From NCBI RefSeq assembly GCF_030013595.1, contig NZ_CP122768.1: a DNA stretch of 64,000 nt, one strand, 5' to 3'. Shown piece after piece: positions 14,848-35,372 of the stretch. The notes below the pieces were generated by a model. That model had not been told where the DNA came from and did no database searches. It worked only from the letters and a program-made list of their open reading frames with translations. Origin of the DNA: Escherichia coli (GTDB lineage Bacteria > Pseudomonadota > Gammaproteobacteria > Enterobacterales > Enterobacteriaceae). The stretch's first letter is position 1; each line of letters opens with the position of its first letter. The translations under genes were made by a program, and so were the position numbers.

Positions 14848-15432
14848 TTACTCCATAACAGGGACCGCAGGCCACTCAATATCAGGTGCAGTTGATGTAT
14901 CAACACGGTTCAGCAACACCCGATACTTTTTCCAGGCTTCCAGCAATGAGTTTTCTTCCTCCGTTGCGATTTCCAGATCTACAGCATCCTGAAGTGGCGC
15001 AATATGCTCACTGGCTACCTGCATCAGGTTGTTTTTTGTTTCTTCCGCCTCCCGGATCCGGAACAGTTTTTCTGCTTCCGTATCCTTCAACCAGGCTGTG
15101 CCGTTCCACTTCTGATATTCCCCTTCCGGCGATAACCAGGTAACATTTTCCGGTAACGGACCGAGTTCAGAAATAAATAACGCGTCGCCGGAAGCCACGT
15201 CATAAACCGTTTTACCCCGATGATCTTCAACGAGATGCCACGATGACTCATCACTGTTGAAAACAGCCACGAAGCCAGCCGGAATATCTGGCGGTGCAAT
15301 ATCGGTACTGTTTGCTGGCAGACCTGTATGAGGCGGAATATATGCGTCACCTTCACCAATAAATTCATTAGTTCCGGCCAGCAGATTATAAATTTTTATG
15401 GTCCGTGGTTGTTCACTCATTCTGAATGCCAT
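14848..15432 (-). CDS. tfa: tail fiber assembly protein
   Basis: 194-aa translation [37 protein letters not shown]... matches lambda Tfa as recalled. Confidence 0.92.
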
Positions 15433-18400
15433 TATGCAAGCCTCACAATATAGTTAAATGCGATGTTTTTGACGGTGTTTTCCGCGTTACCAGCAGCGTT
15501 AACGGTGATGGTGTGTCCATGTGAACCAATCGCAACGGAGTGCGTGTGTGCACCAATACCGACAGTATGTGCGTGTGCACCTGCAGATGCTGCTGTGCCG
15601 GACAGTGAGTGGCTATGGTTACCATCTGTACTGGTATTAGCTAACGCCCCCGTAGACATACCTACTGAGCCTTGTACACCCCAGGTATTTTGACCTGAGC
15701 TTGTATAACCATATTGATAAGTATCTTTAAAAACACTGGGGTTAAATCGACGGCCATCTCTATGGCTGTGATTACCAGCTGCATTCGTGCTGCCACTTAA
15801 ACTATGGGTATGCGCACCAGTGTTATTCGTGGATTTAGTGCCGTAATCAAACGACGATGTGGTTTTCGTCCCCAAATCAGTACTGGATGCGCTGGCGCTG
15901 TGGGTATGCGATTTTATGCCGTCCTGTTCCTGAGACAATACGGCACGACCACTGGCGGGCTTGCCCTTAATCGTCCAGCCACGCATATCAGGGATCACGC
16001 CTGACGGATAAGCGGCTGCAAGTTTCGGGTAGGCAGATTTGTCAAAAGTCTGCCCCTGCATCAGGGCATAACCAGACGGAACGGTATCTGATGGCCACGG
16101 AATTGGTGCGCCAACTGGGTAGCTTTCTGGTGGAAGATTTTTCGAGGTATAAACTTCTGCCCAGCCTTCCTCAAAACCATAGCCATCTCTTGAGGAACGG
16201 TAGAACAGACCTCCATTTCTGTAATGCGCCTTCATCTGCAGGGTCCGGCAACTTCCGACTCCGGTATAGAAGTTAACCAGAATATAGCTGTCGCCAGAGC
16301 GGGTGACATTGTAAGCGCCTGATTCGGCATTCCAGGGAACGCCACCATCCGCATCGGCATATGTATCCGTTGCCCTTCTGGCAAAAGCAGCCACATGCGC
16401 GGCGGTTAAAGTAATATCTTTTGAACCATCAAACTCAACCCCAGAAACCAGTCTTGGCGTTTGCAGCTTTGTTGCTGTCAATGCGTTACCGTTCAGACTT
16501 GCAGACAGTTTGGTTCCAATAACCAGTTCGCCGGTTGCGTTATCAATAGCAAACGGTCTTAATGTATTCCAGCCACCATAAACATCACCTTGATTGGTAA
16601 GCAGCAGGTAAGTTTTAGCGCCATCATTACGCCATAATGCCCCATACTCCCCACCTATCATTCGAATCTGATTACCACCACGCGCTACAATTTCGTCTGT
16701 GGCAAAAAGTTTTTTGCACGACAAGTTATCGTTAACGATTAACGAATGGGACTCATAAAAACCACGCCCACTCTTAAAATCAAGGATAACGTCCGCCGCG
16801 ATACATTCAGTCGCCGGATTTGTTGCCCCAAACTTATAGGTCGTATCATTAACAACGAGATCAGCACCAGGTGCGGATATTGACAGGCCATCTTCGATAA
16901 ACGCAAAAACAGGGAAAGCAGCGCCATCAACATAGAACACAGAGCGCAAATCATCGCCCTTATTACTCATCATTATTGAGTGGATGGCTCGTTCATTGTT
17001 TTGATATTGCCAGAACATTCCATAAGCATAACGCCCCCTGTCAGTCCAGCCACCAGGCATAACAAATCCGTTAAACTCGCAGTTATTCATCGGATCGCCT
17101 GCGGTTCTCGTTGCCGTGGTGATAATGACCCTTGATGCCAGTTCGCTTACTGAGCCAGCAGAACGCATAACAACAACAGGGTAATATTTTCCAGATGTTG
17201 CACCTGCAGGAGCGTTAACCCGCACATAACGCATACCACGCTTATCAGCAAAGTCTGTTTTACTGACCGCGTTAATGTTGTTCAGGAAGCGTCCCTTATC
17301 GGGTATATCAGCGCCGTTCTGGTCTTTCTGCAGACGTTTCTCTGCATTGTCATAGGCTGATTTTACTGCCTTTGGCGTTGCCGCCAGCGTTTCAGACGAA
17401 CTGTTGGTCGCACAGCTGAGCTGTACTATCCCCTTTTTCGTCGTACTTGCATCCTCAAGCGCCACGGCGGATGCAATATCCTCTGCCCGTTTTGCCGCTG
17501 TCTCGGCGCGCGTTGCCGCGGATTCCGCCGTACTTTTGCTCTGTGCTGCCGCCGTCGCACTGCCAGCTGCCTCTGTCGCCTTCGTGGATGCTGTCGTGGC
17601 GCTGCCCTTCGCTGCGGACGCTTGTCTGGTCGCCTCATCTTTTGAAGCAGACGCCGATGATGCCGATGACGCCGCCGAACTGGCGGACGATGCAGCTGCC
17701 ATTTTTGAGGATTCTGCGCTGGTTTCCGACGCTTTCGCGTTCGTCTCGGATGTCTTCGCTGCGGAAGCAGACCTCGCTGCTGCGCTGGCCTGTTCAGTGG
17801 CTTCGCCAGCCTTCGTTGTGGCTGTTGAAGCAGACGATGCGGCACTTTCTGCCGATTTTCCGGCGGCGGTGGCACTGGCTGAGGCCTGCCCGGCACTTGT
17901 TGACGCGGCACTGGCAGACGACGCAGCCGCTGTTTTTGAGCCTGCCGCAGCCGAGGCGCTCTGTCCCGCTGCCGTTTCAGAAGACCTGGCGTTTGTCTCA
18001 GACGTCTTTGCCGCCTTCGCGGAATTGCCTGCCGCCGTTGCCGAGGAAGCGGCACTACTGGCGCTTGATGATGCGTTCGTTTCTGATGATTTCGCTGCCT
18101 CTTTTGAGGCCGCCGCATCCCGGGCTGAGGTGGCTGCTTCTGACGCCTTCGTGGTCGCGGCGGATGCAGAAGTTGCTGCTGATTGTTGTGACGCTGCCGC
18201 ATTCGTTTCTGACGTTTTCGCCGCAGCGGCACTGGTAGCTGCCGCGCTTTTTGAGGACTCTGCAGCAGCAGCACTTTTCGATGCTTCACTGGCCTTTGTT
18301 GATGCCGTTCCTGCGCTGGAAGATGCTGACTGAGCCGACGACGCGGCCTGTCCGGCTGACGTGCTGGCTGCGCGTGCTGAGCCTGCAGCATCAGTCGCAT

Positions 18401-33645: not shown

Positions 33646-35154
33646 TTAATCTTCGGACTGGTCGTCGGTGTGCTGCGGCTCCTGTCGTTTCGTTGCGGCA
33701 CTACTGCCTCCTTTATCACTGGCCGGATCGGTATCAAATACCAGATCCAGCTTGCGGTTTTCATCAATTTCGGCCTTGCGCCGACGTTTGACATCATCCG
33801 GATTACGACCACCAGCACGTACCCAGTCTGATTCTGTCGCCGCTCCACCACGAATCTGGATTTTCCAGGCCTCAGCCTCCTTAACAGGGTCAATCCACGG
33901 CATCACTGGTCCGGAATACACCGCGGTATACAGTGAAGAACGGTCAAGATCGCGGGGTAGCCTGATAACACCGGATGCCACAGCCTGTTTCAGCCATGCA
34001 CGATACATCGGGCGGGTGACGGCACCAATAAACCAGTCCTGCAGGATCAGGTAGCCATCAGTGGATTCAACCAGCTCCTGACGCTGGGCGCTGTAAGTGC
34101 CGTTATAGTTGCGCGCTGTACTGGAAAAACTCAGACGACTGCCCGCCGCCACGGCACGCAACTGACCATTACGAAAAGTTTCAAGGTTAGGATTGGGGCG
34201 ATCCGACTTCACCATTCCGATTTCTTCGCCGGGTTTCAGATCATCGTAAATAATGCCTGGCTGAATGGTAAGCTCGCGTTCCTTATCCTTGCTGCCATTA
34301 CCATCCGGTTCATAGCTCTGCCCGTCGCCTTTGCGGATGTACATCCCCAGAGCAGCGGCGATCCTTGCTGCAGTCAGCTCATAATCTTCATAATCTTTCA
34401 GGGCACTGAGGCGGATCAGCACACCGGACAACAAAGACGTCCCGCGCATCTGGTGCAGACGGCGAACAAATTTAAGATGCAGCATTCGCTCTGCATCCAC
34501 TTCTTTGGTTTCCATCTGCCGTCCGGATACGGGACGGCTTTTATACACCAGATATTTTTCGGGACGCCCCCAGTCATCAACAAACACGCCCTGATTCAGC
34601 CTGTTGCTCTCATCACTGGTCATGGGAATAAAGTCCGGCTCGAGCGCCTCCAGCCAGAAATGAACACCGGCAGAAGGCGTCAGGCTGTTTATGCGCCCGG
34701 AAACCATCTGGGCAAACACCTCACCATCGCGCAGCCAGGTACGCAGCATCAGACGTTCCAGCATCGGACGGGTAAACTGCCCGGTGACTTCCGGGCTGAC
34801 AGACCATTCACTCCATCGGGTGCGAATCTCCGCTGCCAGATCACGGGCAATGGCCCCATTGCGTAATACCGGATGTGGCTCGACAATAATCCCGTTTTTC
34901 CCCACCACCCGTTCTTCCAGCTTGTCAAATACACCAATAACCAGATCGTGGTTGTTATCAAGGTAACGGGCCTGCTCACGTAACGACACGGCCCCGTACT
35001 GGCTTAGCTGGTCGGCAGTTCGGTTCTCCCGTCGGGCTTTGTGTGTCCGCGTCGTTTTTACGGCTTCATAAGCCTGGATCACCGCACGGGAACGCAGCCT
35101 TGCCGCTTTCCATCCAGGTGAAAAAACGCCAATCACATCATCAAGAATTGCCAT
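33646..35154 (-). CDS. portal protein
   Basis: ~500-aa ORF between gpW-like and protease-capsid genes; ATG at 35154 overlaps the upstream stop (ATGA). Confidence 0.82.
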   Translation of the reverse strand: MAILDDVIGVFSPGWKAARLRSRAVIQAYEAVKTTRTHKARRENRTADQLSQYGAVSLREQARYLDNNHDLVIGVFDKLEERVVGKNGIIVEPHPVLRNGAIARDLAAEIRTRWSEWSVSPEVTGQFTRPMLERLMLRTWLRDGEVFAQMVSGRINSLTPSAGVHFWLEALEPDFIPMTSDESNRLNQGVFVDDWGRPEKYLVYKSRPVSGRQMETKEVDAERMLHLKFVRRLHQMRGTSLLSGVLIRLSALKDYEDYELTAARIAAALGMYIRKGDGQSYEPDGNGSKDKERELTIQPGIIYDDLKPGEEIGMVKSDRPNPNLETFRNGQLRAVAAGSRLSFSSTARNYNGTYSAQRQELVESTDGYLILQDWFIGAVTRPMYRAWLKQAVASGVIRLPRDLDRSSLYTAVYSGPVMPWIDPVKEAEAWKIQIRGGAATESDWVRAGGRNPDDVKRRRKAEIDENRKLDLVFDTDPASDKGGSSAATKRQEPQHTDDQSED

Positions 35155-35372
35155 CAGAACCTCGCCAGCCGGTACCCGGGATGCCCCCGTCGTCGTGTAA
35201 TCAGAGCCGCAAGGCGGCGCTCCCACTCCTGCCGTCCCTGCCGGATCTCAGATAAGTTTTCCATGGTCATCTGCTGACCATTAAAGGTGACGGATTTTCC
35301 GTCCAGCACCGCCATTTCAGCTTCCGTATAACGCTGAATCATGGCTTCGATATCATTCTGGTTCATAACCAT
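35154..35372 (-). CDS. head-tail connector gpW-like protein
   Basis: 72-aa ORF directly downstream of the large terminase; C-terminal RRRGHPGYRLARF resembles the lambda gpW C-terminus. Confidence 0.65.
   Translation of the reverse strand: MVMNQNDIEAMIQRYTEAEMAVLDGKSVTFNGQQMTMENLSEIRQGRQEWERRLAALITRRRGHPGYRLARF

Follow-up and report, generated by a model that had tools for sequence, protein, structure and literature searches.

How much of the virion gene set in a lambdoid prophage derives from lambda, and where the lambda-like part begins, is the question raised by a stretch of 64,000 nucleotides (nt) of Escherichia coli DNA (contig NZ_CP122768.1), referred to here as the window. A prophage of ~45 kb interrupts the E. 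coli chromosome in the window, with deoD to prfC on one side and yjjG to yjjP on the other. The initial annotation of its virion genes described a tail of the lambda type joined to a head that is not of the lambda type. With high confidence, we propose two things together: that positions 14848-37959 are the complete late (virion) operon of a lambdoid prophage of the mEp460/Ayreon/phi458/cdtI type, and that, as sequence comparison suggests, this operon belongs to a Gifsy-2-like structural lineage whose tail-tip hub and parts of stf and tfa would recently have been exchanged with lambda-type phages. The range of the initial annotation (14848-35372) covers most, not all, of the late operon.

Likeness to lambda along the late operon

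The late operon lies wholly on the minus strand. As the initial annotation had it, the tail genes stand in the lambda order (Z-U-V-G-T-H-M-L-K-I-J-lom-stf-tfa), and all are present. Each tail product belongs to the corresponding lambda-named Pfam family (Minor_tail_Z, Phage_tail_U, Phage_TTP_12, Phage_TAC_2, Phage_tail_T, Phage_min_tail and others). Gene coordinates are those of the RefSeq annotation of E. coli NCCP 15734, a collinear chromosome (98.3% identical over window positions 1-38175), mapped over to the window. The genes, from the terminase to the side fibres, are as follows.

37465-37959, minus strand: terS, small terminase subunit (DUF1441; PF07278, E 2.5e-41), outside the range of the initial annotation
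35363-37465, minus strand: terL, gpA-type large terminase subunit (GpA_ATPase, E 8.6e-72; GpA_nuclease, E 1.1e-85)
35154-35366, minus strand: W-like small head-tail adaptor gene, in the position of lambda W (weak DUF6148 match only; Ad1 or gpW in the annotation of relatives)
33646-35154, minus strand: portal, divergent member of the lambda portal family (PF05136 Phage_portal_2, E 7.5e-82)
31674-33701, minus strand: fusion of a ClpP-like protease, a helical scaffold-like linker and an HK97-fold capsid protein (PF00574, PF25209 and predicted folds)
31264-31587, minus strand: capsid cement (decoration) protein (PF09956 Phage_cement_2, E 2.3e-20)
30996-31271, minus strand: FII-like head-closure (head-tail joining) protein (PF13856, the Gifsy-2 family, E 2.5e-17; weak match to PF05354, the lambda FII family)
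30406-30984, minus strand: Z, tail completion protein (PF06763, E 2.1e-76)
30009-30409, minus strand: U, tail terminator, frameshifted (PF06141, E 3.8e-56 on the downstream frame)
29255-29998, minus strand: V, major tail tube protein with a C-terminal Big_2 domain (PF16461, E 6e-67; PF02368)
28808-29194, minus strand: G, tail assembly chaperone (PF06894, E 1.7e-39)
28470-28799, minus strand: T, tail assembly chaperone (PF06223, E 3.9e-15)
25433-28498, minus strand: H, tape measure protein of 1021 amino acids (TMP_2, TMP_4 and Tape_meas_lam_C domains)
25104-25433, minus strand: M (PF05939, E 1e-39), last gene of the non-lambda-like (mEp460/Gifsy-2-type) block
24396-25094, minus strand: L (Phage_tail_L)
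23647-24390, minus strand: K (JAB and NlpC/P60 domains)
23102-23749, minus strand: I (Lambda_tail_I), overlapping K
19562-23041, minus strand: J (GpJ domains including Phage_Tail_Tip and Ig_GpJ_C)
18895-19494, minus strand: lom, outer-membrane protein of the Ail/Lom kind, a moron (PF06316, E 4.7e-124)
15432-18830, minus strand: stf, mosaic side tail fibre of 1132 amino acids (Pfam domains, composition and matches to lambda)
14848-15432, minus strand: tfa, tail fibre assembly protein (PF02413, E 6.8e-44)

Amino acid identity to lambda (NC_001416) varies widely among these products. At the fibre end, Tfa is 95% identical to lambda orf-194, and Stf is 80% identical over its N-terminal 352 residues and 71% over its C-terminal 248 residues; Stf residues ~500-905 are without a lambda counterpart. 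Lom is 44% identical to its lambda counterpart and 89-93% identical to those of the mEp460 group. J is 83% identical overall, with 96-100% over residues 1-800 and mostly 26-60% over residues 800-1159, where residues 951-1000 (94%) form an exception. Identity is likewise high for the other tail-tip proteins (L 93%, K 97%, I 78%). The tail shaft is more distant (Z 50%, U 55%, V 55%, G 33%, T 38%, H 25%, M 56%), and in the head only the portal (23% over 232 residues) and terL (25%) have detectable matches. Tfa, Stf, I, K and V had been described as close to lambda, which fits Tfa, K, I and the two ends of Stf but not V. The description of the head genes as not lambda-like in sequence agrees with these values.

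Nucleotide identity to lambda is bimodal: high from L to J codon ~800 and in tfa, ~60% in M, undetectable in H, T and G, and absent from the head. In 100-nt windows, identity steps from ~60% (the 3' end of H, and M) to 93-98% within ~100 bp at ~25,050-25,100, the start of L. The block that begins there (20570-25094; L, K, most of I, and J codons 1 to ~800) is 91-98% identical to lambda per 100-nt window, and a divergent patch in I (~23,270-23,550) is its sole break down to ~20,570. The C-terminal third of J (19562-20569, residues ~800-1159), the putative receptor-binding region, has by these values been exchanged relative to lambda. Per-500-nt profiles against close relatives revealed no discontinuity near ~31,000, the head-tail junction. 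The late operon is therefore mosaic relative to lambda, as the initial annotation proposed, but the step lies at M|L and the shaft, at 25-56%, goes with the part that is not lambda-like. For annotation, recent likeness to lambda should be confined to the genes of the tail-tip hub and the side fibres and should not be extended to the tail as a whole.

In general plan the operon resembles that of lambda in tail gene order, protein families, the K/I overlap, the lom-stf-tfa succession and an Ala/Ser tract in Stf. H is 853 amino acids in lambda and 1021 here. The K open reading frame (23647-24390) encodes 247 amino acids, with a JAB/MPN domain from residue 4 and NlpC/P60 after it. In the lambda annotation K has 199 amino acids and aligns only from residue 49, and its start may therefore be placed too late. 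The open frame of T is -1 with respect to that of G, and GGAAAAG at 28820-28814, two codons ahead of the G stop, is a candidate slippery heptamer (canonical heptamer, GGGAAAG) by analogy with the G-T frameshift of lambda.

Relatives of the operon and origin of the mosaic

A megablast search of ~50,000 phage records found 10 that cover at least 80% of the region at ~97%, including mEp460 (JQ182728 / NC_019716), mEp460_ev081, Ayreon (MF807953), phi458 (OP434518), cdtI (NC_009514) and vB_EcoS-569R4. Taken by itself, the head segment matches 12 phages at 98-99.7% identity, among them phi458, mEp460 and Ayreon. Ayreon is 97-100% identical per 500-nt window over 20001-37984, and mEp460_ev081 yields a single alignment of 17,442 nt (20545-37984) at 97.6% with 2 gaps, across head and tail. 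From M through terS, identity to Ayreon, mEp460_ev081 and cdtI is 97-100% per 500 nt and is unchanged at the head-tail junction. The initial annotation had contrasted its mosaic with uniform identity to a single known phage across both modules, and the profiles of Ayreon and mEp460_ev081 come essentially to that. The arrangement is already known from the sequences of several isolated phages and from about 4% of the complete E. coli genomes: 228 of 5,426 hold at least 80% of window positions 1-25000 (prfC, the cargo genes and tfa, through to L) in one place. Full-length matches listed among these genomes are at most 98.3% identical over the first 25 kb. Two records reach at least 99% at their best place, outside the top-ranked of the matches listed, and presumably represent shorter stretches. 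The region is textbook lambdoid mosaicism, of little import beyond correct annotation.

The order from terS to lom in mEp460, mEp460_ev081, Ayreon, phi458 and cdtI is the same gene for gene as in the window, and the mEp460-type phages are 94-99% identical to it in nucleotides over most of L to J. They differ in the C-terminal part of J (70-78% nucleotide identity at 19500-20000) and in the centre and length of stf. The tfa of the window is lacking or matched only in part in Ayreon and cdtI; cdtI has another terS and another 3' end of terL, and phi458 has a lambda-like M. The cargo beside tfa is a SLATT-domain gene with a UG17 reverse transcriptase gene here, whereas mEp460-type phages carry an invertase, Cif/NleH or IS1.

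The Salmonella phage Gifsy-2 (NC_010393) is a more distant relative with the same late-operon layout: a single ClpP-protease/scaffold/capsid gene, cement-like and FII-like genes, and tail genes in the lambda order. Across head, shaft and tip hub, where gene order is the same, amino acid identity between the window and Gifsy-2 is fairly even, at 43-76% (H 60%). Values below this range are seen for lom (30%) and for the mosaic stf, which is 51% identical over 26% of its length. Gifsy-2 differs from the window in being far more diverged, in having a tail tip that is not lambda-like (L 67% and J 67% identical to lambda) and in having lom-like and sodC morons placed precisely at the M|L boundary (31139-32490 of its record). 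It provides a baseline for an old relationship with lambda: Gifsy-2 and lambda are at most 25% identical in the head, 25-58% in the shaft and 60-77% in the tip. The window lies at this baseline for head and shaft, but is 93-100% identical to lambda in L, K, J residues 1-800 and Tfa. A Gifsy-2-like head together with a lambda-like tail has already been described in the lambdoid phages LLS and mEp213 (PMC12315714).

Other lambda-type phages (ev099, 2H10, mEp332, Kati and Chlobot) have tfa, stf and tip genes in common with the window, and the central 430 residues of Stf are 99.3-99.8% identical to those of 2H10, Kati, mEp332 and ev099. Unlike the window, at least one of them, ev099, combines these genes with a head and shaft that are fully of the lambda type (S49 protease, gpD, gpE and an H gene of 2562 nt), and the fibre cassette thus passes between phages of different head types. 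As evidence of a head-tail junction, ev099, 2H10 and mEp332 were rejected, ev099 being an ordinary lambda-type phage that shares only tip and fibre genes.

These comparisons suggest the following history. The Gifsy-2-like lineage would be anciently related to lambda, with conservation climbing from the head to the tail tip. Recombination with lambda-type phages, acting at or near gene boundaries, would recently have exchanged L-K-I and J residues 1-800, which form the tail-tip hub, as well as parts of stf and tfa, with the left junction of the exchange at M|L. The C-terminus of J, lom and the centre of stf may be further host-range cassettes, swapped independently. In phage phi458, head and shaft are those of the window (H 26% identical to lambda), and the lambda-like block runs from the 3' end of H (lambda coordinate 12965) and includes an M 95% identical to lambda M (phi458 9800-11600). 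That this block starts one gene earlier on the same head and shaft suggests repeated, independent tip exchanges. Block-wise co-transfer of interacting structural genes has been documented in lambdoid phages (PMC9836094).

It is very unlikely that a complete lambda tail module, Z through tfa, was joined as a unit to a foreign head at the head-tail boundary to give an unusual new mosaic. The tail genes are all in lambda-named Pfam families and in lambda order, yet Z to M are no nearer to lambda than the corresponding Gifsy-2 genes are. Low or absent identity in the head (at most 25%) would suit a foreign origin, yet the portal and terL are in lambda families. V, U and Z do keep weak nucleotide similarity to lambda (63-79%) where the head has none; the step in identity is nonetheless at M|L and not at ~31,000, and at least 10 known phages have inherited head and shaft together, at 97-100% identity.

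Marginally less probable again is a history without recent exchange, in which evolutionary rates differ along a vertically inherited operon with conserved tips and fast-evolving heads. The comparison of Gifsy-2 with lambda is itself graded in this way, but the tip of the window, at 93-100%, stands well clear of that 60-77% baseline, and the change takes place within ~100 nt at a gene boundary. Differing rates also sit poorly with the boundary in phi458, one gene further upstream behind an identical head and shaft, and with the divergent patches in I and J that break an otherwise 95-98% identical sequence. An assembly chimera of two prophages of the source genome is hardly credible: E. coli genomes do carry several similar lambdoid prophages (a median of 5 matching places per genome) and such repeats are known to confound assemblers (PMC8065619), but the same contiguous arrangement occurs in independently sequenced phages and complete chromosomes, with NCCP 15734 collinear as given above, and the prophage ends are clean against the empty site of K-12.

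Several points weigh against a Gifsy-2-like operon with recently exchanged tip and fibre genes. No single deposited phage matches every segment, the C-terminus of J (19500-20000) being only 70-78% identical to the phages fetched, and the centre of stf matches other phages (2H10, ev099 and mEp332), which carry lambda-type heads. The exact combination was found only in E. coli chromosomes such as that of NCCP 15734. Whether transfer went into the lineage of the window or into that of lambda cannot be told from pairwise identities. The frameshift in U means that this copy may not make functional tails. Finally, the processing of the capsid polyprotein and the G-T frameshift site are inferred, as are packaging at cos and both the direction of the exchanges and their timing; gene content, domain families, folds, identity profiles and breakpoints are shown by the analysis.

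A further reading, put forward tentatively and rather doubtful, is that the M|L boundary is a preferred, reusable junction in Gifsy-2/mEp460-type phages and that L-K-I and the J N-terminus form an exchangeable cassette. The combination in the window (mEp460-type head and shaft, lambda-type tip, Stf of the 2H10/ev099 type, and SLATT and UG17 cargo) would then be a recombinant unrepresented among deposited phage genomes. Three observations fit such a junction: the lambda-like block of the window starts there, that of phi458 starts one gene upstream, and the Gifsy-2 morons lie exactly there. The H-M-L region looks like a recurrent junction.

The head genes

The head is very distant kin of the packaging and portal machinery of lambda, with a different solution for protease, capsid and decoration. 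Lambda has a separate S49 protease (C/Nu3), gpD and gpE, whereas the window has a ClpP protease fused to the major capsid protein and a cement protein. The small terminase subunit is Nu1 in lambda and a DUF1441 protein here; terS is 99% identical in amino acids to those of Ayreon, mEp460 and phi458, with no match in lambda. Lambda and the window do share the Pfam families of portal and terL. TerL is 25% identical to lambda A, 70% to its Gifsy-2 counterpart and 99-100% to those of the mEp460 group. The cement protein fills the role of lambda gpD, yet its sequence is unrelated to gpD.

The portal had been described as one of a different type, which does not hold. It scores 275.8 bits on PF05136, "Phage portal protein, lambda family" (cut-off 32.9), and matches profile positions 3-354 of 354. 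Identity is 23% to gpB (over 232 residues, E 1.4e-7) and 64% to the Gifsy-2 portal. Portal and terminase are best annotated as distant members of lambda families.

The fusion of a protease to an HK97-fold capsid protein, already recognised by the initial annotation, is confirmed by one uninterrupted reading frame (open over 31674-33893). Its product of 675 amino acids contains a ClpP protease domain (PF00574, residues 45-191, E 5e-36) and a Phage_capsid_4 domain (PF25209, residues 375-672, E 9e-55). The start is ambiguous: the PGAP-equivalent start is at 33701 (675 amino acids), and the start equivalent to that in the GenBank records of phages is at 33632 (652 amino acids), from which the gene no longer overlaps that of the portal. 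S101 and H124 are invariant across an alignment of the fusion protein with 47 full-length homologues, and we take these as the putative catalytic Ser and His of ClpP. An AlphaFold (AF2) model built on this alignment has a mean predicted local distance difference test (pLDDT) score of 85.7, with two folded domains and a helical middle, and its N-terminal domain superposes on ClpP structures (Foldseek E ~1e-12). The fold search with the full-length model was filled by ClpP chains, and the capsid domain was modelled alone. The model of the C-terminal 331 residues (pLDDT 77.9) matches encapsulins, HK97 Head II and the capsids of T5, D3 and SU10 (Foldseek E ~1e-9, probability 1.00); by sequence, the capsid domain found only weak Mu gpT-like matches in the PDB (E 2e-4).

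The fusion protein is 70% identical to the Gifsy-2 capsid gene product STM1034.3n over 97% of its length and 99-100% identical to those of the mEp460 group. At least 100 of the best 150 cluster representatives (clustering at 50% identity) align with it end to end, and at least 80% of the gene is matched in 80 phage records. Fused protease and coat genes are known in Gifsy-2 (PMC12315714), and the "tripartite capsid gene" of Gifsy-2 was published by Effantin et al. 2010. The head is Gifsy-2-type, not HK97-type: the capsid protein shares the HK97 fold in the predicted model, but the portal is of PF05136 rather than the HK97-type PF04860, the protease is ClpP-like rather than of the HK97 gp4 family, and the capsid domain, of Phage_capsid_4 with the Mu gpT-like match, is fused to the protease in place of separate gp4 and gp5 genes.

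By homology, the DUF1441 small terminase subunit and the gpA-type large subunit would package DNA through the lambda-family portal. The head shell would be built from the one polyprotein gene, with its ClpP-like protease, scaffold-like linker and HK97-fold capsid protein; the polyprotein presumably cleaves itself after assembly, by analogy with Gifsy-2. The cement protein would stabilise the shell, and a lambda-style non-contractile tail would be assembled from Z, U, V, G and G-T, H, M, L, K, I and J, with Stf/Tfa side fibres.

The stf gene, the U frameshift and the setting of the prophage

In the product of stf, a lambda-like N-terminal domain is followed by an Ala/Ser tract and then by a non-lambda centre (residues ~500-905), which holds a trimerisation domain of the T4 gp34 type; the C-terminus is again lambda-like and has HxH repeats. 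The tract, described initially as a repeat region of ~340 residues, is real: it occupies Stf residues 112-462 (351 residues; window 17445-18497) and is 62% Ala and Ser. It is shorter in lambda (248 residues), Gifsy-2 (240) and Ayreon (212). The G+C content of the tract is 62.5%, against 49% in the rest of stf. As a repeat, the tract fares less well, Tandem Repeats Finder having returned for stf only two trivial arrays (25-30 bp) and no tract-wide periodicity; it is of low complexity and degenerate rather than cleanly repeated.

Open reading frames of 263-335 codons lie over the tract in three alternative frames, one sense and two antisense, and lambda has an annotated antisense "orf206b" inside its own Ala/Ser tract. 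Codon shuffles reproduce the open runs in two of the three alternative frames. The third, antisense frame (17447-18238, plus strand) has 1 stop where synonymous-codon shuffles predict 7.3, and the same frame is also poor in stops in lambda (0 against 4.5 expected) and Gifsy-2 (0 against 3.3). All the expected stops of this frame are NCT|A (CTA) codon pairs, and this pair is avoided in the other late genes as well (20 observed against 55 expected, a ratio of 0.36). With this avoidance applied, the expected number of stops falls to ~2.6. In addition, 40 of the 51 substitutions relative to mEp460_ev081 fall on third codon positions of stf, which are second positions of the antisense frame. A hidden antisense gene was rejected on these two grounds. 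The alternative-frame reading frames are compositional artefacts, as the initial annotation held in calling them spurious on both strands, and these long open reading frames should not be called genes.

In U, a 1-bp deletion after codon 8 (CGCCAGG to CGCAGG, at ~30385/30386) shifts the frame. The intact CGCCAGG is present in all five relatives compared (mEp460_ev081, Ayreon, phi458, cdtI and E. coli NCCP 15734). The deletion is either a real tail defect or a sequencing error; unless it is the latter, the prophage is without a tail terminator and probably cannot produce infectious particles, so that this copy may need to be annotated as tail-defective. The other late genes are intact in the window; NCCP 15734 has frameshifts in L and in the capsid gene.

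Exact attachment (att) repeats of at least 12 bp were not found near the first-guess junctions, and the prophage ends were placed instead by alignment to the prfC-yjjG site of K-12, which is empty. They lie at ~12,105 and ~57,450. An identical 14-bp core, GGGTGAGAAATAAT, flanks the element at 12091-12104 and again at 57437-57450 and is located within the 5' end of prfC. The first ~20 codons of prfC are replaced by a diverged, phage-borne copy that supplies a substitute N-terminus. The chromosomal flank is 98.6% identical to K-12. The prfC gene is a published insertion site of lambdoid phages (PMC8065619).

Between attL and tfa, a SLATT-domain gene (12836-13387, plus strand) overlaps a reverse transcriptase gene (13365-14735, plus strand). 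PADLOC matches the pair (12836-14735) to RTasSLATT (E 2.8e-57) and RT_UG17 (E 8e-159), and the SLATT and UG17 reverse transcriptase genes are defence-associated cargo of the prophage. A frameshifted DinI-like gene lies directly upstream of the pair in the annotation of a related chromosome. At the other end of the prophage (54026-57206, minus strand), a gene of the AIPR family (PF10592, E 5e-43), a family of the abortive-infection type, adjoins the tyrosine integrase gene (55983-57206).

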